Shown here one piece after another: positions 1,123 through 11,446 of a stretch of 64,000 nt of DNA (its first letter is position 1; the number at the start of each line of letters is the position of its first letter). The position numbers and the translations under genes are program-made. The notes beneath the pieces were generated by a model. The model made no database searches. It worked only from the letters and a program-made list of their open reading frames with translations, and was not told where the DNA came from. Origin of the DNA: an uncultured Pseudomonadota bacterium. GTDB lineage: Bacteria > Pseudomonadota > Alphaproteobacteria > UBA9219. The DNA lies in assembly GCA_903919315.1 (NCBI GenBank), contig CAIXHP010000032.1, forward strand, positions 44,977-108,976. Reading direction: 5' to 3'.

Positions 1123-2001
1123 TCAAATGGGCGGCTGTCCTTTGTAAGGAACAGCAACACCATAAAGACCATCCGCTACGTCTCCATATTTTTTCAAGAT
1201 ATGCTCAATTTCGCCACTATACAGCATTTCCTGCGTAACTGTATTGACGGCGTTCACCAGCGATTCTTCATGCTTGCCGAAAGCAATCGTATTGCCCCAA
1301 ACGTTAACAGGCGGAACCCCCTCGACAAGCTTGAGCTTTCCAGGATTGCTTTTCAGAAATTCTCTCATGATGAGACGGTCAACAAACGTGACATCAGCCT
1401 TGTTCGACATGAGTTCCATAAAGGGAGCCGAGGCACCGGAAACGGCAGGTGTCTCGTCAAGCGTTGCTCGAGGAAAACGAGACTTGGCGATAACCGAGGC
1501 GATGGATGCTTCCATCGAAGCAACCCGAACAACCGAATCGTCGATCGCCATGAGGTTGCCATCAAACCGCACATCATCAGCCCGAACCACGGCAAACACG
1601 CTGTTGAAGCTGATCGGCGAGGTAAAATCTAATAGTTTTGCGAGCCCAGCCGTTGGCCAAATGCCAGAACAGAATGCATCAATACGACCGTCTCGAATTT
1701 CCTCATAGACATTGCCGTACAGAACTTCGGCAGTCCATTCGACTTTAATCCCCATGTGTCGCGCCAGCCCCTCAAGGTAGTCGTAGAAGAACCCCTCAAA
1801 AGCCTGAGTCTGCAGATTGCGCGACATATAAGGCGGCCATGAGAAATATCCACAACGCAGCACGTTTGTGCGCATAACGCGGTCGTACGCCGTTTCCTTA
1901 TTATTTTCTCGCTCACCCCCCATCACTGCTGGACGCAGAAACGAGGTGACCAAAGCTAAGGTCGCCACAACGAGAGCGATAACGGCGGTTTTGTTTTTCA
2001 C
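1123..2001 (-). CDS. Orphan family 3 (polar amino acid) periplasmic solute-binding protein
   Basis: N-terminal hydrophobic anchor; LRCGYFSWPPY, GRIDA, LDFTSP, KADV, ILKKYG motifs; no permease or ATPase nearby. Confidence 0.8.
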   Translation of the reverse strand: MKNKTAVIALVVATLALVTSFLRPAVMGGERENNKETAYDRVMRTNVLRCGYFSWPPYMSRNLQTQAFEGFFYDYLEGLARHMGIKVEWTAEVLYGNVYEEIRDGRIDAFCSGIWPTAGLAKLLDFTSPISFNSVFAVVRADDVRFDGNLMAIDDSVVRVASMEASIASVIAKSRFPRATLDETPAVSGASAPFMELMSNKADVTFVDRLIMREFLKSNPGKLKLVEGVPPVNVWGNTIAFGKHEESLVNAVNTVTQEMLYSGEIEHILKKYGDVADGLYGVAVPYKGQPPI

Positions 2002-2023
2002 AGTCTCACCCCCTCGACTTTAC

Positions 2024-2473
2024 TCAAAGACCACCCAGATCGGCCAAAAGCTGGTTACGCTCGGCATAACGCCCGCCCAGAAATTCGGTGTCGAGAAACA
2101 CGGCGAGGCTCTCCTGCGCCATGCCAACGCCGACGACATCCGCGCCCAGCGTCAGCACATTCGCGTCGTTGTGTTCACGCGCCATCCGCGCCATCGTCGC
2201 GTTCGAGCAAAGCGCGGCGCGGATGTGGCGGTAACGGTTGGCCGTCATCGTCATCGCCTGCCCTGTTCCGCAGATCAGAACGCCCCGTGCGCCCGTGTCC
2301 TTCCTGAGCGCCTCCGCCAGTTTGACGGCATAATCCAAAGCGTCGCAGCGGGCATCGCTGGACGGGCCGAGGTCAAACGGCTCGTACCCTTCCTGTCGCA
2401 GCCATGCGACCAACTGGGCTTTCAGGGCGAATCCTCGATGATCCGAGGCGATATAGACAGCGCGGTTGCTCAT
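2024..2473 (-). CDS. rpiB: Ribose-5-phosphate isomerase B
   Basis: IASDHRGFALK, GVLICGTG, AREHNDANVL, FLGGRY. Confidence 0.93.
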   Translation of the reverse strand: MSNRAVYIASDHRGFALKAQLVAWLRQEGYEPFDLGPSSDARCDALDYAVKLAEALRKDTGARGVLICGTGQAMTMTANRYRHIRAALCSNATMARMAREHNDANVLTLGADVVGVGMAQESLAVFLDTEFLGGRYAERNQLLADLGGL

Positions 2474-2548
2474 AGGCCCAATAGTAAAGCCCCAAGCTAC
2501 GAATGCAACCCCGAATTAACCAAAAAGAAACGTTTGTTCGGGGGAGCG

Positions 2549-4768
2549 TTACCGCCCCTTCGTCCGATCCACCGAGATGATGGCCGTGCTGGCGCGCAGC
2601 GCCGCGATGACATTCATAAGGTGAGCCGAGTCCTTGACCTCCACATCGACCAGAATATCAAAGAAATCCGTCGTGCGATTGGTGATTTTAAGATTAAGGA
2701 TATTGCCGCCGCCCTTGCCGATGATCGTCGTCAGAGAGCCGAGACTGTTCGGCTGGTTGGTGACGACGATGCTGAGCCGCCCGGCCATACTGGATTCTTT
2801 GCCGTAAGCATCGCCCCAACCGACATCCACCCAACGCTCCGGCTTGTCGCGGAACGAGCTGAGCGTTTCGCAATCCAGCGTATGGATCGTCACGCCCCGC
2901 CCCGTCGCGACGATGCCCACAATCGCGTCGCCCGGCAGCGGATGGCAACAGCGGGCGAAACGAATGGCCATGCCGGGAATAAGCCCTTTAAGTGCCAAAG
3001 GCGGATGCGCGTGAGCCTTGCCCTTCTGCGGCGCGACCATGCCCGCTTCGGAGAGCGGGATTGCCTTCTCGGCGGTTTTCGCCCGATGCTGCGGAAAAGC
3101 CGCGTTCAGCACATCGCGCGGCGACTGCAACGAAGCGCCGATGTTGGCCAGCAAATCCTCAAACGTCGCCGCCTGAAAAGTCTTCGCCACGGCCTCGAAC
3201 GGCTTTTCGCCGAAGTCCAAACCTTCCTGCTTGCACAGCTTGTCGAGGATGGCGCGGCCCAGCGTGACATATTCCGTGCGTTGCTGGGCGCGAACAAAAC
3301 GGCGTATGCGGGCGCGCGCCTTGCCGCTGACGACGAAACGCTCCCACGCGGGCGACGGCGTGCCGCCCTTTTGCGTCACGACCTCGACCTGATCGCCGTT
3401 GTGCAGCACCGTCCGCAACGGCACCATCCGCCCATTGACCTTGGCGCCGACACAACAGTCCCCGACTCCGCTATGCACGGCATAGGCGAAATCCACCGGA
3501 GTCGCGCCGCGCGGCAAGGCGATCAAATCGCCCTTGGGCGAAAAGCAAAAAACCTGATCCTGAAACAGCTCCAGCTTAGTGTGTTCCAGAAATTCTTCCG
3601 GCTTCTGCGCATGCTCCACAATGTCGAGCAACTCGCGGAGCCAGCGGTATTGCGTTCCGTCCGTGCGCTGCTCGCCCTGCTTGTAGCCCCAGTGCGCCGC
3701 GACACCCAACTCCGCCACTTCGTGCATGGCGTTCGTGCGGATCTGGATTTCAATGCGTTGACGATGCGGGCCGATGATGCCTGTGTGCAAACTTTGGTAT
3801 TTGTTCGGCTTTGGCGTTGAAATATAGTCCTTGAACCGGCCCGGCACGACCGGATAATGGCTGTGGATCACGCCCAAAGCCTGATAACACTGCTCCACCG
3901 AATCGACGAGAATGCGGAACGCCATAATGTCGGACAGTTGCTCGAAGGCGACGTTTTTGCGCTTCATCTTGCGCCAGATGGAATAAGGAGTCTTTTCGCG
4001 CCCCTCCACCGTGGCGACGATCCCCGTTGCGGCCAGAACTTTCCGCAATTCGTCCTGAACCTTGGTGGCCACGTCGCCGCCTTCGCTGCGCAGGAAATTC
4101 AGGCGGGCAATAATGCTGTTACGCGCGTCGGGGTTCAGCTCGGCGAACGACAAGTCCTGCAACTCGTCCTGCATCGTCTCGATGCCGATGCGCTCCGCCA
4201 ACGGAGCATAGATGTCCAGCGTCTCGCGCGCGATGCGGCGGCGCTTGTCCTGATTCTTCAGATGGTGAAGCGTCCGCATGTTGTGCAGACGATCCGCGAG
4301 CTTGACCAGCAGCACGCGAATGTCCTCCGACATCGCCAGCACCAGCTTGCGGAAATTTTCGGCCTGTTTGGCCTGATCGTTCTGGAATTCGATGCGCGAG
4401 AGCTTGGTAACGCCATCCACGAGTCGCGCGACGCTAGGGCCAAATTGTTTTTCAATGTCCGCCAGCGAAGCCAGCGTATCCTCGACCGTATCGTGCAGCA
4501 GCGCCGTGGCGATGGTGGTGCTGTCCATCTTCATCCCGGTCAGGATGCCCGCCACCTCCAACGGATGCGAAAAATAAGGATCGCCCGAAGCGCGCATCTG
4601 AGCGCCATGCGCCTGCATCGCGAACACATAGGCGCGGTTCAGCAGATCTTCGTTCGCGTCGGGATCATACGCCTTGACCCGCTCCACAAGCTCATATTGC
4701 CGCATCAGACGCGGCTTCACAGGAGCGGAAACGCCATCGGTCGGCGGTACATTCAAACCATCGGGCAT
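2549..4768 (-). CDS. spoT: Bifunctional (p)ppGpp synthetase/hydrolase Rel/SpoT
   Basis: HD motifs (HPLEVA, LLHDTVED, KLADRLHNMRTL); SYNTH motifs (GREK, DIMAFR, YQSLH, EIQIRT); TGS, ZFD (ARCCHP..H..DC) and ACT domains; start at ATG 4768 is my choice. Confidence 0.96.
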   Translation of the reverse strand: MPDGLNVPPTDGVSAPVKPRLMRQYELVERVKAYDPDANEDLLNRAYVFAMQAHGAQMRASGDPYFSHPLEVAGILTGMKMDSTTIATALLHDTVEDTLASLADIEKQFGPSVARLVDGVTKLSRIEFQNDQAKQAENFRKLVLAMSEDIRVLLVKLADRLHNMRTLHHLKNQDKRRRIARETLDIYAPLAERIGIETMQDELQDLSFAELNPDARNSIIARLNFLRSEGGDVATKVQDELRKVLAATGIVATVEGREKTPYSIWRKMKRKNVAFEQLSDIMAFRILVDSVEQCYQALGVIHSHYPVVPGRFKDYISTPKPNKYQSLHTGIIGPHRQRIEIQIRTNAMHEVAELGVAAHWGYKQGEQRTDGTQYRWLRELLDIVEHAQKPEEFLEHTKLELFQDQVFCFSPKGDLIALPRGATPVDFAYAVHSGVGDCCVGAKVNGRMVPLRTVLHNGDQVEVVTQKGGTPSPAWERFVVSGKARARIRRFVRAQQRTEYVTLGRAILDKLCKQEGLDFGEKPFEAVAKTFQAATFEDLLANIGASLQSPRDVLNAAFPQHRAKTAEKAIPLSEAGMVAPQKGKAHAHPPLALKGLIPGMAIRFARCCHPLPGDAIVGIVATGRGVTIHTLDCETLSSFRDKPERWVDVGWGDAYGKESSMAGRLSIVVTNQPNSLGSLTTIIGKGGGNILNLKITNRTTDFFDILVDVEVKDSAHLMNVIAALRASTAIISVDRTKGR

Positions 4769-4781
4769 AAGGAAGCCTAGT

Positions 4782-6803
4782 TCAGGCGGGCGTCGTTTGC
4801 AAGGGAGCGGGGATGGAGGCGGCACGCCGTAGTGCCAAAGCAAAGCCCCGCGGCGGCCTTGCCATCGGCTGTGGCTGAGATGCCATTGTGAACCGAACCG
4901 TAGCAGCGTGAGGCAGTGGCCTATTCAGTGCCTGGCGATAAGCATCATCGGTCAACCTCTGGCCATTGATTTCCGCAGCTTCAACGCCGGACCAAAAATC
5001 AATGCGAAGAGATCGGCCAAAGTCGCCAAGCGTCGGCGCACGCCCGTCAGTCTTTTCCAAGCGATGCAAGACACCGTCCGCCCCGCCCACCACGATATAA
5101 GGCCACTCCTGATGCTCCGGCAACTCGCGCCCATTCAAACGGGCCCCCATCCACATTTGCAAATGGGCCATCATGTTATGGCGCAGTTTGCCGCGCGTCG
5201 GCCCCGTAGTATCCGGATGCGGTCTTGTGTCCGTAAGGTCCTTACCCGCAGCCCGCATTGCCTTGTGCACGCCATGGTGCGCCTCGCCATGCCCATTCGC
5301 CTCGTGCATCGATTGGGTCACCATCTGAACTTCGACCTCAAGTCCTTGTTCAGTCCCAAGCTGCTTGATAATCAGCCCGTCATGTATCGCGGCATAACCA
5401 TTGGGTTTCGGCTTCGCGACATAGTCCTTGTGCCGGCGCGGCATAGGTTCAAAAGCGTGGATCAGCGCGTTCCTAAGCCCCTTCAATCGCGCATGATTCT
5501 GTCTAGCATTGATGTGCCCCTTCAATGTAAAACTATCGGGCAAAACAAAACGAAACGCATAGATGTCGTAAATGCCCGTGATTCTGGCGTCAGGCGACAA
5601 CCGATAAACCGGATAACACTTTTCATCGAAATCCTTCTGCAGCTGTCGCATGGCATCATTATACGCGCCCGCGTTAAGCTCGCCTCTGTCCAATTGTCCC
5701 GCCAAAGCCTCGCGCGCGGAATCAAAGGCTTTTTCGTCATCCTCTCTCGGCATAACCAGAAGCTTTTGTTGAATCGACCAAGGGGCTTTGACCCGACCAG
5801 TCACCGAAGCGATGGAATCTGTGCCGAACCCTTGCCGTTCGAGTCCTGCCAAGATTTTTTCCTGAATAACGGCAAGATTCGCTTGCGCACGCATGGCATC
5901 AAGCTGCACCCGAATAGAGCGCTCCGCGTCCGGATCGAGTTGATGCAGCAACAGATGCTGCATTTCCCGCTGAATGGGTCGGAGGGTTTCCATTTCACCC
6001 ACCAGCGGCAAATACATTTCCTGAATATGAAGCCTCAGCAGCGTTCGCGCAGCCTCGTCCCCTCGCCCTTTTCCCATAACCCGGAGCTTTTCCAAAGCAT
6101 CCGCGATCTTGATGAGCGCAACACGCGCCGGATTTCTGGTGCCGAGCACCAAATCCTGTCCCAACGCGTATTGCGTCTTGTTAAATAAAATGTCCCTTCG
6201 GCGGAGCATGCCTTGAGCGTCAGGAATACGGCTGGTAATCGGCTGGCGGGTGATGCGGCTAACCTCCTCGACCATCGCCACAATCGGCGGGTGCGCGGCA
6301 AAGGTTTCCTGCACACGGCTGATGGGAATGATGTCATAGGCCACATATTCCTGCAGCAACGCGGCTATGACAGAAATGACTCGTTGCGCTTTTTGCGTTG
6401 ACGCGCTGGACTGTGTTTTTCGACCGCCGCGTGACGGTTCTGCCACCGCCGCATCAGGCTGGACGCGATCAATATTCATGGCGGCCACCGTCATGGCCAC
6501 ACGGAGGTCGCTCTCGAAAGTTCGACCGTAGTCCAGTTCATGAGACTCAAGAGCCCGCGCCAATTTTCGAGGATGGTCGCTCTCTTCGATCAGATTGACA
6601 GCCTGCGTCACCAAGCCAACATCGCCGTCGATGCCGCGAATCAGATCATAAAGATCTTGCTTGCGAGGATGGAGCTTCTGACCAACGTCAATGACGAAAC
6701 TGCCGATTCGACGCGCCAAAGCCGCCTGACCGTCATCGCCGCCAGAAGGAAGCGTCAACACATCATAAGCTCTGGTCGTTGACCTGCGTCGAGGCATAAC
6801 CAC
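4782..6803 (-). CDS. Divergent RelA/SpoT homolog with degenerate HD, SYNTH and TGS-like domains, no ZFD/ACT
   Basis: GRVKAPWSIQQK, DIYAFR, KDYVAKPKPNGYAAIH, EVQMVT; AALLQEYV in place of ALLHDTV; LIKIADALEKLR in place of LVKLADRLHNMR. Confidence 0.85.
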   Translation of the reverse strand: MVMPRRRSTTRAYDVLTLPSGGDDGQAALARRIGSFVIDVGQKLHPRKQDLYDLIRGIDGDVGLVTQAVNLIEESDHPRKLARALESHELDYGRTFESDLRVAMTVAAMNIDRVQPDAAVAEPSRGGRKTQSSASTQKAQRVISVIAALLQEYVAYDIIPISRVQETFAAHPPIVAMVEEVSRITRQPITSRIPDAQGMLRRRDILFNKTQYALGQDLVLGTRNPARVALIKIADALEKLRVMGKGRGDEAARTLLRLHIQEMYLPLVGEMETLRPIQREMQHLLLHQLDPDAERSIRVQLDAMRAQANLAVIQEKILAGLERQGFGTDSIASVTGRVKAPWSIQQKLLVMPREDDEKAFDSAREALAGQLDRGELNAGAYNDAMRQLQKDFDEKCYPVYRLSPDARITGIYDIYAFRFVLPDSFTLKGHINARQNHARLKGLRNALIHAFEPMPRRHKDYVAKPKPNGYAAIHDGLIIKQLGTEQGLEVEVQMVTQSMHEANGHGEAHHGVHKAMRAAGKDLTDTRPHPDTTGPTRGKLRHNMMAHLQMWMGARLNGRELPEHQEWPYIVVGGADGVLHRLEKTDGRAPTLGDFGRSLRIDFWSGVEAAEINGQRLTDDAYRQALNRPLPHAATVRFTMASQPQPMARPPRGFALALRRAASIPAPLQTTPA

Positions 6804-6847
6804 AAACCCTTACCGCAATAGACCCAATTCCAAAAATACGGCTTCGC

Positions 6848-7255
6848 TTAATCCTTCACGTCAGCGTCTTCAAAGCTGGTCACAAGGCCGCTTTGGTCAG
6901 CATCGGATTCGACTTCTTCGGCATCCAAATCTTCGTCGCCTTCTTCCTCGCCGCCGAGATCGGCGTTGATCCAGCTCTGCTGTTCGCCCGCCATCAGTTC
7001 AACGACTTCTTCTTCCGGTTGGTCGGGTTCAACGCGCTTCTGCAAACCCTTGACCAAGGTTTCATGCAGGCTCGCCAAATCCAGACGCTCCTCGGCGATC
7101 TCGCGCAAGGCCACGACCGGGTTTTTGTCACGATCACGCTCCAGCTTCAGCTCGGCACCGGATGCCAACGCGCGCGCGCGATGCGCGGCCAGCATCACCA
7201 ACTCAAACCGATTGGGAATTTGCAGAACACAGTCTTCAACAGTCACGCGCGCCAT
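6848..7255 (-). CDS. rpoZ: RNA polymerase omega subunit
   Basis: [34 protein letters not shown] with acidic tail. Confidence 0.97.
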
Positions 7256-7632
7256 TTCCAAAAACCCCTGCCGATGAGAAGAAAATTCGCCTGCTTATCC
7301 GCATTACCTCTGATTGGAAGCAAATTACCCCAAAAAGATATGAACAACGAAACAAACCAGCTTACCGCGTCTATACTAACCGTTTTTGTGAGTGCATGTA
7401 AAGCGTCGCTGCGTTATAATCATGCCGAAAGGTGGGGAGAATTTGTCAATCCCTGCCTTGCGGCTTAATTTTTCTTGGACTAGTTTTGTTTGTGGCCCTG
7501 ATTCGGAGGCATTCTATATTCTCGGTTGCCTTTTTTTGGCAGCCTCGGTAGAATGAAAGCCTCGCCTTTGAGCCTTGCGAGTCAGGCCGTTAAGCATGGT
7601 TAATATCGAGCTTCACACTGTATGAGGGTAAG

Positions 7633-8265
7633 ATGATATTCTATAAAGAAGAGCGGATGGCGATGTTCATCGACGGGGCCAATCTGTACGCCGCCGCACG
7701 GGGGCTCGGTTTTGACATCGATTACAAGCGGCTTTTGGAACTCTTCGCCGGACGTGGTCGTCTGGTGCGGGCGTTCTATTACACCGCCCTCATCGAAAAC
7801 GAAGAATACTCGCCGATCCGGCCGTTGGTGGATTGGCTGGACTACAACGGCTACGCCATGGTCACCAAGCCGACCAAGGAATTCACGGATGCCTTTGGCC
7901 GCCGCAAGATCAAGGGCAATATGGACATCGAGCTGGCCATCGATGTCATGGAGATGTGCGAACACGTCGACCACATCATGATCTTCTCCGGCGACGGCGA
8001 TTTCCGTCGTCTGGTCGAAGCGGTGCAACGCAAGGGTGTGCGCGTCAGCGTCGCCAGCACGATGCGCTCCTCGCCCCCCATGGTGGCAGACGAACTGCGC
8101 CGTCAGGCCGACAACTTCATCGAACTGCAAGACCTGATGCCCCACATCGCGCGCGCGCGCGATCCGAACCAGCAACAGCAGCAGCCGGCAGGGAATCAAC
8201 CCAACATGAAGGAAGTCGCCCAAAGCCTAGCGGCAACCCAAGAAGCCATCCAAGAAGTCGCTTAA
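7633..8265 (+). CDS. NYN/LabA-DUF88 domain protein
   Basis: FIDGANLY, KGNMDIELAID, FSGDGDF, LRRQADNF; Gln-rich tail. Confidence 0.92.
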   Translation: MIFYKEERMAMFIDGANLYAAARGLGFDIDYKRLLELFAGRGRLVRAFYYTALIENEEYSPIRPLVDWLDYNGYAMVTKPTKEFTDAFGRRKIKGNMDIELAIDVMEMCEHVDHIMIFSGDGDFRRLVEAVQRKGVRVSVASTMRSSPPMVADELRRQADNFIELQDLMPHIARARDPNQQQQQPAGNQPNMKEVAQSLAATQEAIQEVA

Positions 8266-8339: not shown

Positions 8340-9722
8340 TCAGGACGCATCCCCGCCTTTCGCCCGCTTCTGCCGCGCAGTCTTCAAATGATCCGCCACC
8401 AGAAAGGCCATTTCGAGGGCTTGCGAGGCGTTCAACCTTGGGTCGCAGTGGGTGTCGTAGCGGTCGGCGAGGGTTAGCTCCGTCACCGCCGAGCTGCCGC
8501 CCGTGCATTCCGTCACGTCGCGCCCCGTCATCTCCAGATGAATGCCGCCGGGCCACACGCCTTCGGCATCGCACACGTCAAAGAACGCGCGCGCCTCAGA
8601 CAGGACGCGGTTAAAGTCGCGCGTCTTATAGCCCGTGGCGGACATCTGCGTGTTGCCGTGCATAGGATCGGAACACCACACCACCGAACGCCCGGCTTGC
8701 TTCACCGCCCGCAGCAACGGCGGCAAGCACGACGCGACTTTGTCCGCCCCCATGCGTGTCACGAGCGTCAAACGCCCCGGCTCGTTGTCGGGATTCAACG
8801 CGTCGATCAAACGCAGCAGATCATCCGTCGCCAGCGACGGGCCGCATTTGAGGCCAAGCGGATTTTTCACGCCGCGCAAAAACTCGACATGCGCGCCGTC
8901 CGGCTCCCGCGTGCGGTCGCCGATCCACAGCATGTGCGCGGATACGTCGTACCAATCGCCGGTCGTGCTATCCACACGCGTCAAAGCTTCTTCATAGGGC
9001 AGCAACAAAGCTTCGTGCGACGTGAAAAGATCCGTCTCGCGCAACGCCGCCGAAGTGTCGCCGTTGATCCCGCAAGCGTCCATAAACTCCAACGCCTCGC
9101 CGATACGCCGCGCCAGATCTTGGTAGCGTTCGCCTTGCAAACTGCGCTCGACGAATCCCAAATTCCAGCGATGCACCTGATGCAAATCGGCATAGCCGCC
9201 CTGCGCAAAGGCGCGGAGCAGATTGAGCGTCGCGGCGGACTGGTTGTAAACCGAAATCATGCGCTCAGGGTCCGGCTGCCGCGCCTCCGACGTGAAATCC
9301 AGCCCGTTGATGATGTCACCGCGATAGCTGGGCAGCGTCACGCCGTCGCGCGTCTCGGAGTCGTCCGAGCGCGGCTTGGCGAACTGTCCCGCCATGCGCC
9401 CCACCTTGACCACCGGAGTCGCGCCGCCATAGGTCAACACCACCGCGATTTGCAAGATGACGCGAAAAGTATCGCGGATATTGTTGGCGCTGAACTCGGC
9501 GAAGCTTTCCGCGCAATCGCCGCCCTGAAACAGGAACGCGTTGCCCGCCGCGACATTCGCCAGCGCCCGCTTCAAGCGCCGCGCCTCGCCCGCGAACACC
9601 AGCGGCGGCAAACGCGCTAACCGCGCCTCGGCTTCCTGCAAACGAACGGCATCACTATATACAGGCTGCTGCTTCGCGGTTTTGGCGCGCCAGCTGTCGG
9701 GAGTCCAATTATGCTGTGTCAT
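8340..9722 (-). CDS. Class II DAHP synthase
   Basis: [51 protein letters not shown]. Confidence 0.96.
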
Positions 9723-9967: not shown

Positions 9968-11119
9968 TCAGTCCGGATAGCACACATAATACACCCAGCA
10001 CGAGGTGCAGGCGGCATACTCGTCCTCGACCAGCCACTTCCCCGACAGATCAATGGGCTTCACATCTTTATAGCCGCAACGGCGAAGCTGCGCGATCTGC
10101 TGTTCAATCGTGATGTAATACTGCGCAATGCGGAAACCATGGGTGCCGTCGTTCACGATGGCGTATTCTTCACAGGTGTGTTCGAACTGCGCGGCCTTCG
10201 CCTTGTTGGCTTCCTCCTCGGCGTTGCGCGGCTGGCGATCGACGGTCTTGAGGTAATTTCGGTTGTGGGACGAAAACACCATCACCCCATCGGGCGCGAC
10301 GACGCGGCGGAACTGCCTCCAAACGCTCAAGCGCTCCTCATGCAAAAGACTGTCGATGCCGTTGAAGCTAAAAATCAGAAAATCGACCGAGGCATCGGCG
10401 AAACGCGACATATCCCGCGCATCGCAAATCTGGAATTTGTATTCGGGAAATTTGACGGCGCAATTGCGCACCATCGCCTCGGAATAATCCACGCCGAGAT
10501 ACTGGCGGCTCAGTTTCGTCAACGACGGCGTCAACCGACCGGCACCAACGCCGATTTCCAAAATGCGCTTGCCCATGATGCTGGGTCCCATCTTCTCAAA
10601 CAAGCTGGCTTCCACAGGATACACGCCTTCCAAAACCGCATACTCCTGTGCGATCGTCGCGTCGCTCCAAAACGAACGATTGGTGGCATAAAAGCCCTCC
10701 GAAGCCGTCGCCGCCGTATCGTCTTGTCCCAGAAACGGTTCAGGATTCGCCAACGCTGCGTGAACGCGCGTGAGAACCTCCTGCCCCTCGGCGGTCAAAC
10801 CCACATGCACAGCCGCCTGCTCCATTACGCTCAAAGCATCGCTGGCACGGCCCGCCCCCAACAGCCTGTTCGCATACGACCAATAAAAAACGGCTTGGTT
10901 TGGCGCGACCTCGATGGCCTTGGCCATGAACGACAACCCCATAGCGGCGCGCCCCGTCTCGCAACACAGAACGCCGAGATTGTGATTGGCTTCGGGATGA
11001 TCGGGCAGCGCCTGCAGAATGGCGCGATACAGTTGATCGGCCTCCCCCAACCGTCGTCCGCGATGACTATCGACGGCGCGCAACAGGGCTTCGTCGGCGG
11101 TGAGTTGCTCTTCGGCCAT
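9968..11119 (-). CDS. TPR-repeat plus class I SAM-dependent methyltransferase fusion
   Basis: TPR (PDHPEANHNLGVL); ILEIGVGAGR, GVDYSEAMV, CDARD; AGGAG RBS before ATG 11119. Confidence 0.85.
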   Translation of the reverse strand: MAEEQLTADEALLRAVDSHRGRRLGEADQLYRAILQALPDHPEANHNLGVLCCETGRAAMGLSFMAKAIEVAPNQAVFYWSYANRLLGAGRASDALSVMEQAAVHVGLTAEGQEVLTRVHAALANPEPFLGQDDTAATASEGFYATNRSFWSDATIAQEYAVLEGVYPVEASLFEKMGPSIMGKRILEIGVGAGRLTPSLTKLSRQYLGVDYSEAMVRNCAVKFPEYKFQICDARDMSRFADASVDFLIFSFNGIDSLLHEERLSVWRQFRRVVAPDGVMVFSSHNRNYLKTVDRQPRNAEEEANKAKAAQFEHTCEEYAIVNDGTHGFRIAQYYITIEQQIAQLRRCGYKDVKPIDLSGKWLVEDEYAACTSCWVYYVCYPD

Positions 11120-11446
11120 GACACACATCTCCTGAACGTTGCAGTCCCGGTTATCCGGACTGAAAATAGAGCCACGCCGTTTGCCGCAATGCAGCATCGC
11201 ATGACGCAGTGCGAAGAAAGGTAGCGATAACCGGAACATCAATCAAGATAAGCGTTTTCTTGCATTTTTCTCATGATGAAAGTGCGTTCTGCACTTGACC
11301 TTTGGTGCGCGAATCGGGCCTACTGACCTCGCCGCAGCCCACTGTTTTTTTGCCCGGACTGATTCCTCGCAAACGACGCAGATGGGTATGTTTGAACCGT
11401 TCAAACCCAGTCTCCTAATCGGCATCAGATGGAAGGAAAAAGAAAC

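Follow-up and report, generated by a model that had tools for sequence, protein, structure and literature searches.

Gene Order at the rpoZ-rel Locus

The window (the whole stretch of 64,000 nucleotides that was analysed) lies on contig C32 of an uncultured pond alphaproteobacterium, the 2.4-Mb genome of which is 100% complete by markers. Between rpoZ and a canonical bifunctional rel gene, and in the same orientation as both, it carries a second long RelA/SpoT homolog (RSH), hereafter referred to as the paralog (Table 1). The paralog has lost the ligands of the hydrolase (HD) domain, keeps most of the ligands of the pyrophosphokinase (SYNTH) domain, and lacks the ribosome-binding C-terminal half of Rel. 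It belongs to a small family of second copies that recur at this position in an order of uncultured Alphaproteobacteria.

In the list of open reading frames (ORFs), the paralog starts at GTG 6803 (4782..6803, 673 aa), and the coordinates agree with the co-directional 673-aa frame that an earlier note on this DNA had placed 44 nt after rpoZ and 13 nt before an intact Rel. ATG 6797, which has AAGGG 9 nt upstream and gives a 671-aa product identical to database protein P0001, is the likelier start, and residues are numbered from it throughout. Over both starts, the gap to rpoZ is 44-50 nt. On the other side, 13 nt separate the TGA of the paralog from the Rel ATG at 4768. The neighbouring Rel is complete, with 706 bits against the TIGR00691 cut-off of 499.

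Table 1. Features of the rpoZ-paralog-rel region, with positions along the window and residue numbers counted from ATG 6797 of the paralog.
Feature	Positions	Strand	Details and basis
rpoZ (RNA polymerase omega)	6848..7261	minus	Pfam RNA_pol_Rpb6 6.2e-16; directly upstream of the paralog, co-directional
Sigma-70-like promoter match upstream of rpoZ	7373..7402	minus	Consensus scan
Paralog (second RSH), whole gene	4782..6797	minus	671 aa from ATG 6797; stop TGA 4782-4784
N-terminal tail, residues 1-42	6672..6797	minus	Variable, partly disordered; pLDDT 43-65 (residues 1-30); family consensus fraction 0.23
Pseudo-hydrolase HD-fold domain, residues 43-290	5928..6671	minus	HD_4 scores, alignment with small alarmone hydrolases, motif columns
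SYNTH (nucleotide pyrophosphokinase) domain, residues 291-515	5253..5927	minus	Pfam RelA_SpoT, RelP/RelQ alignment
Helical-hairpin insert in SYNTH, residues ~349-404	5586..5753	minus	BLASTP gap against Rel, AlphaFold2 helices
Linker helix (516-560) and degenerate TGS-like beta-rich domain (561-640, with invariant G575)	4878..5252	minus	hhalign
Pro/Ala-rich disordered C-terminal tail, residues 641-671	4785..4877	minus	pLDDT 36-44
Canonical bifunctional Rel	2549..4768	minus	HD_4, RelA_SpoT, TGS, AH_RIS and ACT_4 all present (Pfam)

A consensus scan of positions 2300-7700 found no terminator-like site between rpoZ and the paralog. The sole minus-strand match (4787-4775) spans the paralog-rel junction and is a weak stem of 5 pairs whose tail is poor in T. 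Promoter-like sites numbered four, compared with 2.3 expected by chance, which supports the match upstream of rpoZ weakly. A single transcript of rpoZ, the paralog, and rel would fit these scans. Positions 4000-7300 of the window were contained in five DNA runs from pond and lake metagenomes of two studies, two of which, one per study, may have yielded this DNA, and contigs of three further runs (X3, X4, and X5) showed no differing letter in the pieces that covered the paralog. The ORF is therefore not an assembly artefact; the same identity makes a within-population dN/dS (the ratio of nonsynonymous to synonymous substitution rates) impossible. Variants and apparent joints in the run contigs were located in rel, came from short contigs of other organisms, and were rejected.

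Loss of Hydrolase Residues and Retention of Synthetase Residues

The HD dyad of the hydrolase is replaced in the paralog by Q149 and E150 (LLQEYVAY for LLHDTVED), and the ED that follows by A153 and Y154. The ADRLHN motif has become A232-D233-A234-L235-E236-K237 (IADALEK for LADRLHN). Judging from these residues, the hydrolase is dead. The SYNTH motifs are present as GRVKAPWSIQQK, YDIYAFR, HKDYVAKPKPNGYAAIH, and EVEVQMVT, and every SYNTH motif and HD loss that the earlier note had quoted (LLQE, ADALEK, and EVQMVT included) was found.

The residues that hold the ATP donor, Mg2+, and guanine are kept in the paralog as R335, K337, S341, K345, D411, R416, Y468, E489, Q491, and H508. In SaRelP, R78 and R112 form the adenine stack, the phosphates are held by K80, S84, K88, and R91, and Mg2+ by D107 and E174, with H190 on the ribose and Tyr151 of the G-loop stacking the guanine (PMC5794853, in part); the equivalents in RelSeq include R241, R269, D264, E323, and Y308 (PMC7983052, in part). 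In FaRel2, R64, R95, and Q147 are on the adenine, and the corresponding set further comprises E145, K66, S70, K74, R77, and D90 (PMC11782079, in part). The acceptor-side residues R455, K457, K464, and H472 are also kept in the paralog, the basic ones (R455, K457, and K464) fitting a nucleotide acceptor, and D458 and K512 are listed among further SYNTH ligands. An RxKD-type motif is retained as R455-H-K-D458. This motif is reportedly of significance in bifunctional Rel, with ExDD being its counterpart in RelA.

Domain Architecture and Predicted Fold

Pfam recognized RelA_SpoT in the paralog (PF04607, 43.2 bits against a cut-off of 27, 5.3e-11) and a borderline HD_4, with 25.1 bits for the protein (cut-off 27.2) and 29.5 bits in a six-frame search of the genome; nothing further was matched. 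BLASTP aligned the paralog to the neighbouring Rel with 25% identity (E 3e-20) and a large gap inside SYNTH. Models of bifunctional enzymes scored far below their cut-offs (TIGR00691, 73 bits vs. 499; NF008303, 59 bits vs. 947).

The AlphaFold2 model, which was built from a 40-sequence alignment, is confident, with a predicted local distance difference test score (pLDDT) of 86.6 and a predicted template modelling score of 0.87, and its fold resembles that of the N-terminal domain (NTD) of Rel. The NTD of Bacillus subtilis Rel (8acu_B) aligned to residues 43-556 (Z 20.1, root-mean-square deviation 5.0, 328/331 residues) and full-length SpoT (7qpr_D) to residues 43-643 (Z 13.7, 408 residues). 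Small alarmone hydrolases (SAH/Mesh1 structures) covered residues 52-296 (Z 10-11), RelP/RelQ structures residues 289-513 (Z 10-11), and CapRel residues 280-519 (Z 9.6). The best Foldseek match was 6yxa (E 5e-14), and the RelA ribosome-complex structures 5iqr and 5kpv matched the model only partially.

The fold also explains where the extra length of the protein resides. The earlier note had described a novel N-terminal extension; an extension exists, but because the structural alignments to Rel begin at about residue 43, it comprises only about 40 residues, and the remaining extra length is accounted for by insertions in the HD fold (about 108-131 and 185-203) together with the hairpin in SYNTH. 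From the Lys of SxxxK to the catalytic Asp, there are 65 residues in the paralog and 14 in Rel, which corresponds to an insert of approximately 51-56 aa and agrees with the 50-60 aa proposed previously. This insert was modelled as two helices (339-370 and 376-392, pLDDT >90) that prolong the triphosphate-binding helix, and it varies in length and sequence among relatives (family alignment: occupancy 0.60, consensus fraction 0.20).

The C-terminal half is strongly reduced. No Pfam match to TGS was obtained in the window paralog, and AH_RIS (PF19296) and ACT (PF13291), both of which are present in the neighbouring Rel, were likewise not matched by Pfam. The family C-termini aligned by hhalign to the linker and TGS of Rel (probability 90.6%, E 1.3e-6, 100 columns), and among 24 proteins scanned, Pfam TGS was matched in two of the 20 members of the family (family A), namely the syntenic ortholog P0074 (1.6e-6) and P0095 (4.6e-3). 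Residues 561-640 are accordingly read as a probable degenerate TGS, as was proposed earlier together with the absence of ZFD and ACT. Past this part, only about 30 disordered residues follow.

Family Membership and Conservation

A word-indexed search found only two relatives of the paralog, at 33 and 29% identity, among them P0003, which comes from a metagenome-assembled genome at NCBI and, as the only member with an NCBI name, is called a "hypothetical protein". An exhaustive search of 1.84 billion representatives returned 1358 matches at E<=1e-3, of which only about 20, counted at the 50% identity level and consisting of intact ORFs of 538-783 aa, belong to the family. The closest sequences outside the family are ordinary Rel-type proteins at E~1e-13 and worse; therefore, the family is not near any other public group. 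A protein atlas contained generic RSH clusters only, including HD-SYNTH-TGS proteins of 466-600 aa from other phyla, and no closer relative. A scan of a genome collection with an alignment that included canonical Rel, the patterns of which were too general, kept 80 loci and no family members; these loci are ordinary Rel-type genes (73 gave a Rel ORF) and served as named outgroups in the trees.

Mean column identity in the 20-sequence family alignment is 24%. All 20 members nevertheless share K337, D411, Y468, E489, H508, K512, and G575, and R455 and K464 are each kept in 16. Nineteen members cover the HD dyad, which reads QE in 13 of them and HD in one. The best-conserved region is the pseudo-HD domain (residues 132-290), where at least 16 of the 20 sequences agree at 19 of 159 positions, compared with 11 of 111 in SYNTH (residues 405-515). 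The N-terminal tail, the SYNTH insert, and the C-terminal tail are variable across the family.

Distribution, Synteny, and Selection

A family profile was run over 70 genomes of the order, which comprises the taxonomic families f1, f2, and f3. It separated the true members (500-655 bits) cleanly from canonical Rel (77-167 bits) and recovered members in six genomes that represent five genera of the window's taxonomic family. When the PF04607 search and the profile matches were combined, a second RSH ORF was present in 22 of the 70 genomes, with 10 of 54 in f1, 5 of 8 in f2, and 7 of 8 in f3. One of these 22 (G022) is an unpublished genome, without which the count is 21 of 69. Two genomes were left out of the count: G004, which contains a single 344-aa fragment and is 74% complete, and G026, in which two matches look like one rel split over two contigs. 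The window genome itself contains only two RSH-superfamily genes, Rel and the paralog.

The second copy directly follows rpoZ in 13 of the 15 copies read, that is, in 13 genomes from all three taxonomic families. In ten of these, rpoZ, the paralog, and rel are adjacent. In two genomes of f2, one gene lies between the paralog and rel, which encodes a MarC family membrane protein in G024 (1.6e-51; locus L095, 2994..3626, minus strand) and a 466-aa ORF without a Pfam match in G030 (locus L010, 2702..4099, minus strand); in G039, the contig ends directly after rpoZ and the paralog. The remaining two copies, in G011 (locus L011, 1817..3499, plus strand, 561 aa) and G009 (locus L102, 815..2932, plus strand, 706 aa), are divergent second RSHs of the window's taxonomic family that lie away from rpoZ and rel and may have been relocated; in the G009 copy, a very long insert precedes the G-loop. 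Of 10 related or alphaproteobacterial loci that lack the paralog, all have rel directly after rpoZ, consistent with the single long Rel after rpoZ that the earlier note regarded as usual in Alphaproteobacteria. The description of the paralog as inserted between rpoZ and rel holds for its position. It does not hold as a recent event, and the gene is better described as an old, fast-evolving paralog that occurs in three taxonomic families and is missing from many genera.

All second copies that were scanned have a recognizable SYNTH and lack ACT, and HD_4 is below the threshold or missing except in G024 (41.2 bits). The HD dyad is lost in every second copy that was inspected, a set to which those of G012, G017, and G059 did not belong. 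The copies of f3 (locus L099, 1724..3940, plus strand, in G033, and loci L097, L101, L096, and L100) still carry the Arg of ExQxR(T/D/S); the G-loop is shortened to SKP-YESLH in four of them and remains PNGY in the copy of G027. The f3 copies are possibly a less derived form of this paralog.

No internal stop was found in any family match. Between the congeneric genomes G012 and G059, the paralog (74.5% amino acid identity) has a dN/dS of 0.109, compared with 0.050 for Rel and 0.128 for rpoZ; this pair belongs to another genus than the window, and its dS of about 1.5 is near saturation. In these relatives, the gene is under purifying selection.

A divergently oriented gene with an NYN domain (7633..8265, plus strand; Pfam NYN 7e-39) lies beyond rpoZ in the window. 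The pairing of NYN and rpoZ was observed in every related locus read (eleven genomes), and the NYN gene is a conserved neighbour of the block formed by rpoZ, the second RSH where present, and rel. Past it are a class-II DAHP synthase (8340..9722, minus strand; Pfam 8.8e-212) and a protein with TPR and SAM-methyltransferase parts (9968..11242, minus strand), both ordinary-looking. Two ORFs of 650 and 307 aa (1868..3820 and 3857..4780, plus strand) run antisense over rel and are most likely artefacts of high G+C content rather than genes.

Origin of the Paralog

Two trees were calculated, a mixture-model tree of 75 rows and a quick LG+G4 search of 51 rows that is less resistant to long-branch attraction. 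In both, long branches set the second copies outside every canonical long RSH that was sampled, a placement that may itself be due to long-branch attraction. The 20-member family forms one clade (Shimodaira-Hasegawa-like approximate likelihood ratio test, 98), and in the 51-row tree, all 17 sampled second copies fall on one side of a split with a support of 99. An approximately unbiased (AU) test on the same 51 rows under LG+G4 did not reject the grouping of the 17 second copies with the eight Rel sequences of this alphaproteobacterial clade, six of which are from the order's own genomes (p-AU 0.516). Given the position between rpoZ and rel and the non-rejection in the AU test, the simplest reading would be that rel was duplicated in tandem long ago and that the copy then diverged fast and was lost repeatedly.

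A Putative Synthetase without a Ribosome-Binding Half

The function that we consider moderately probable for the paralog is that of a ribosome-independent, synthetase-only alarmone enzyme, the product of which would be removed by the neighbouring Rel. This reading follows from the invariant residues for Mg2+, phosphate, ribose, and base stacking, together with the dead HD domain and the absence of the ribosome-binding half. The paralog would be a lineage-specific long RSH derived from Rel that has shed both the ppGpp-hydrolase chemistry and the AH, RIS/ZFD, and ACT regions, and its presumably competent SYNTH domain would move pyrophosphate from ATP onto GDP or GTP to yield (p)ppGpp. Synthesis would not require the stalled-ribosome/tRNA trigger that is used by full-length Rel and RelA. 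Control might instead be exerted through co-transcription with rpoZ and rel, through the helical insert near the ATP site, and/or through allostery of the pseudo-HD domain; allosteric control is suggested because the pseudo-HD domain is strongly conserved and the insert lies at the ATP entrance. The bifunctional Rel, as the sole hydrolase-competent RSH of the genome, would degrade the product, and synthesis and hydrolysis would thereby have been split in the style of RelA and SpoT a second time, independently. Among the three possibilities raised in the earlier note, such a division of labour fits best, since the catalytic SYNTH residues are invariant, the HD ligands are lost, and Rel is the only other RSH; the other two, a pseudoenzyme and a synthetase with an altered substrate, were weakened.

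Several observations weigh against an active (p)ppGpp synthetase. The Pfam score of its SYNTH domain is weak, at 43 bits compared with 145 in the neighbouring Rel. The Arg of ExQxRT is V493 in the paralog and is not Arg in any of the 20 family members; no statement on the role of this Arg was found in the SYNTH-enzyme papers searched. The third basic residue of the triphosphate-binding helix (R91 in SaRelP, R77 in FaRel2) is V348, and because the hairpin starts exactly there, donor binding may be changed or prevented. Of the 20 family members, 13 retain the adenine-stacking Arg (the others have Gly in five cases, Ser in one, and Phe in one) and 14 the Gln of ExQ (otherwise His in five and Glu in one), and at least one subclade may use ATP in a non-canonical manner. 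Conservation peaks in the pseudo-HD domain and not in SYNTH, which would suit a binding or regulatory role equally with catalysis. Furthermore, no RNA run was listed with positions 4000-7300 of the window, the dN/dS estimate stems from a near-saturated pair of a different genus, and neither tree places the origin of the family.

Part of this evidence would also be accounted for by a pseudoenzyme or sensor that binds (p)ppGpp, ATP, or GTP without catalysis and regulates Rel or another partner, for example, in a heterodimer or by titration of alarmones. Besides the conservation peak, the loss of the ExQxRT Arg in 20 of 20 members, of the helix Arg, and of the donor-site Arg in 7 of 20, the large insert beside the ATP site, and the tight linkage to rel (13 nt) point in this direction; a binding of the paralog to Rel is hinted at by adjacency only. 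Nevertheless, despite an identity of 24%, none of the 20 members departs from the acidic Mg2+ pair, the Tyr of the G-loop, the His for the ribose, or two Lys for the phosphates, a pattern typical of retained chemistry, and the window copy keeps every named ATP ligand but the third basic helix residue. The pseudoenzyme is regarded as unlikely. Ranked behind it, and improbable as well, is an active pyrophosphokinase with a changed substrate, which would produce (pp)pApp or pGpp, or else modify the 3' end of an RNA, in the manner of the toxic small alarmone synthetases (toxSAS), with Rel or another enzyme keeping the product in check. The surroundings of donor and acceptor are altered (V493, V348, and, in one subclade, ExH with Gly for the stacking Arg), and SYNTH-fold enzymes with other acceptors exist: CapRel aligns to the model, FaRel and Tas1 produce (pp)pApp, the target modified by FaRel2 is tRNA (PMC11782079, in part), and a fragment of an alphaproteobacterial long RSH made pppApp in vitro (PMC6491832, in part). 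A weak PADLOC match to the candidate family PDC-S33 (3.5e-7) covers residues 406-498, within SYNTH only. On the other hand, the setting of NYN gene, rpoZ, paralog, and rel is a housekeeping one across the order, with neither a defence island nor a two-gene toxin-antitoxin pair; the six-frame genome search found no small alarmone hydrolase; and the acceptor-side basic residues, the G-loop's KPNGY, and the RHKD form of the RxKD-type motif are kept.

In a further possibility, the pseudo-HD domain, with its family-wide LLQE(F/Y)VA pocket, would be a ligand sensor that gates a remodelled SYNTH domain, and the enzyme would either produce a nucleotide other than (p)ppGpp or serve as an alarmone-activated feed-forward amplifier. 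Remodelling of the donor side is deduced from the missing ExQxRT Arg, the lost helix Arg, the hairpin at the ATP entrance, and the ExH and Gly subclade; we consider this gating model doubtful. If it were true, the paralog and Rel would constitute a two-enzyme, ribosome-free alarmone circuit in an alphaproteobacterial order that evolved apart from RelA and SpoT. Finally, a decaying duplicate, that is, a functionless pseudogene in the making, would be compatible with the very fast divergence (25% identity to the neighbouring Rel), the lost domains, and the failure to find the gene in 48 of the 70 genomes searched. However, every copy examined is an uninterrupted ORF of 538-797 aa with no internal stops, dN/dS is 0.11 in the single congeneric pair, the catalytic residues are invariant, and the fold is predicted with confidence, and decay is close to refuted.

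Comparison with Known RSH Proteins

The synthetase-only paralog proposed here resembles RelA of Beta- and Gammaproteobacteria in that a dead HD fold stands beside a SYNTH domain that keeps its catalytic residues, in that it coexists with a hydrolase-competent long RSH, and in its probable descent from a duplication of rel. In contrast, it is not an ortholog of RelA (38.5 bits against the cut-off of 728 for the RelA equivalog NF008124) and lacks AH, RIS/ZFD, and ACT, all of which RelA has in its ribosome complexes. Its probable TGS is degenerate, with GRSLRID where the AYAVHS stretch has a His, and it has the RxKD-type RHKD rather than the ExDD of RelA. The 51-56-aa SYNTH insert and the tandem arrangement with rel after rpoZ also set it apart. 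With bifunctional Rel it shares the NTD fold (Z 20) and the order of HD and SYNTH, probably followed by TGS, and it differs in lacking the hydrolase ligands and AH, RIS, and ACT and in having inserts in both HD and SYNTH. Small alarmone synthetases and toxSAS (RelP/RelQ, CapRel, FaRel, and Tas1) share the SYNTH fold (Z 9-11) and, presumably, independence from the ribosome. Unlike these, the paralog has several domains, among them an HD fold and a probable TGS remnant, and no oligomerization helix bundle; unlike toxSAS, it has no antitoxin-like partner and sits among conserved housekeeping neighbours in 13 genomes.

Lineage-specific second long RSHs are a kind of protein that is already known. 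RshA, RshB, RshC, and RshD are lineage-restricted second copies of Rel, of which RshB shows a RelA-like divergence of HD and some RshC lack ACT; unlike the paralog, they are from Actinobacteria, Bacteroidetes, Bacilli, and Deltaproteobacteria (Atkinson et al., 2011, PMC3153485, in part). In the tables of the same study, typical sets of Alphaproteobacteria are Rel alone, Rel with Mesh1, or Rel with capRel (PMC3153485, in part). A single long RSH is described as the main state in Alphaproteobacteria, and shortened long RSHs without ACT or HD are mentioned (Ronneau and Hallez, 2019, in part). No paper on a second long RSH in Alphaproteobacteria was found in the literature search; Methylobacterium extorquens was considered as a case with two RSHs and rejected, as its "RSHMex1-352" is, in the part of the source that describes it, a truncation of one enzyme. 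The motifs LLQEFVA, LLQEYVA, and MYLPL do not occur in the labelled representative alignment of supplement file 2 of Jimmy et al. (2020), from which long gap runs had been removed. The paralog family is a real, selected, and apparently undescribed long-RSH subfamily. With regard to RshA-D and the 13 long-RSH subfamilies of Jimmy et al. (2020), this is indicated indirectly, by the lack of a close match outside the family among 1.84 billion representatives and by the absence of the motifs from that alignment, and an earlier description may exist. Because current family models miss such paralogs, with NCBIfam scores far below the cut-offs, RSH censuses of metagenome-assembled genomes will undercount them.

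Biological Implications

The split between RelA and SpoT in Beta- and Gammaproteobacteria is the textbook example of how a bifunctional alarmone enzyme became a synthetase on the one hand and a hydrolase on the other. The paralog would be a second natural experiment of this kind, in which the ribosome-sensing half has been shed and a new insert has been acquired at the ATP site, with the gene still in tandem with its parent. If the enzyme is active, it would bear on why pseudo-HD domains are retained, on ways to control a long RSH independently of the ribosome, and on how levels of basal as opposed to induced (p)ppGpp are adjusted in freshwater Alphaproteobacteria with small genomes.

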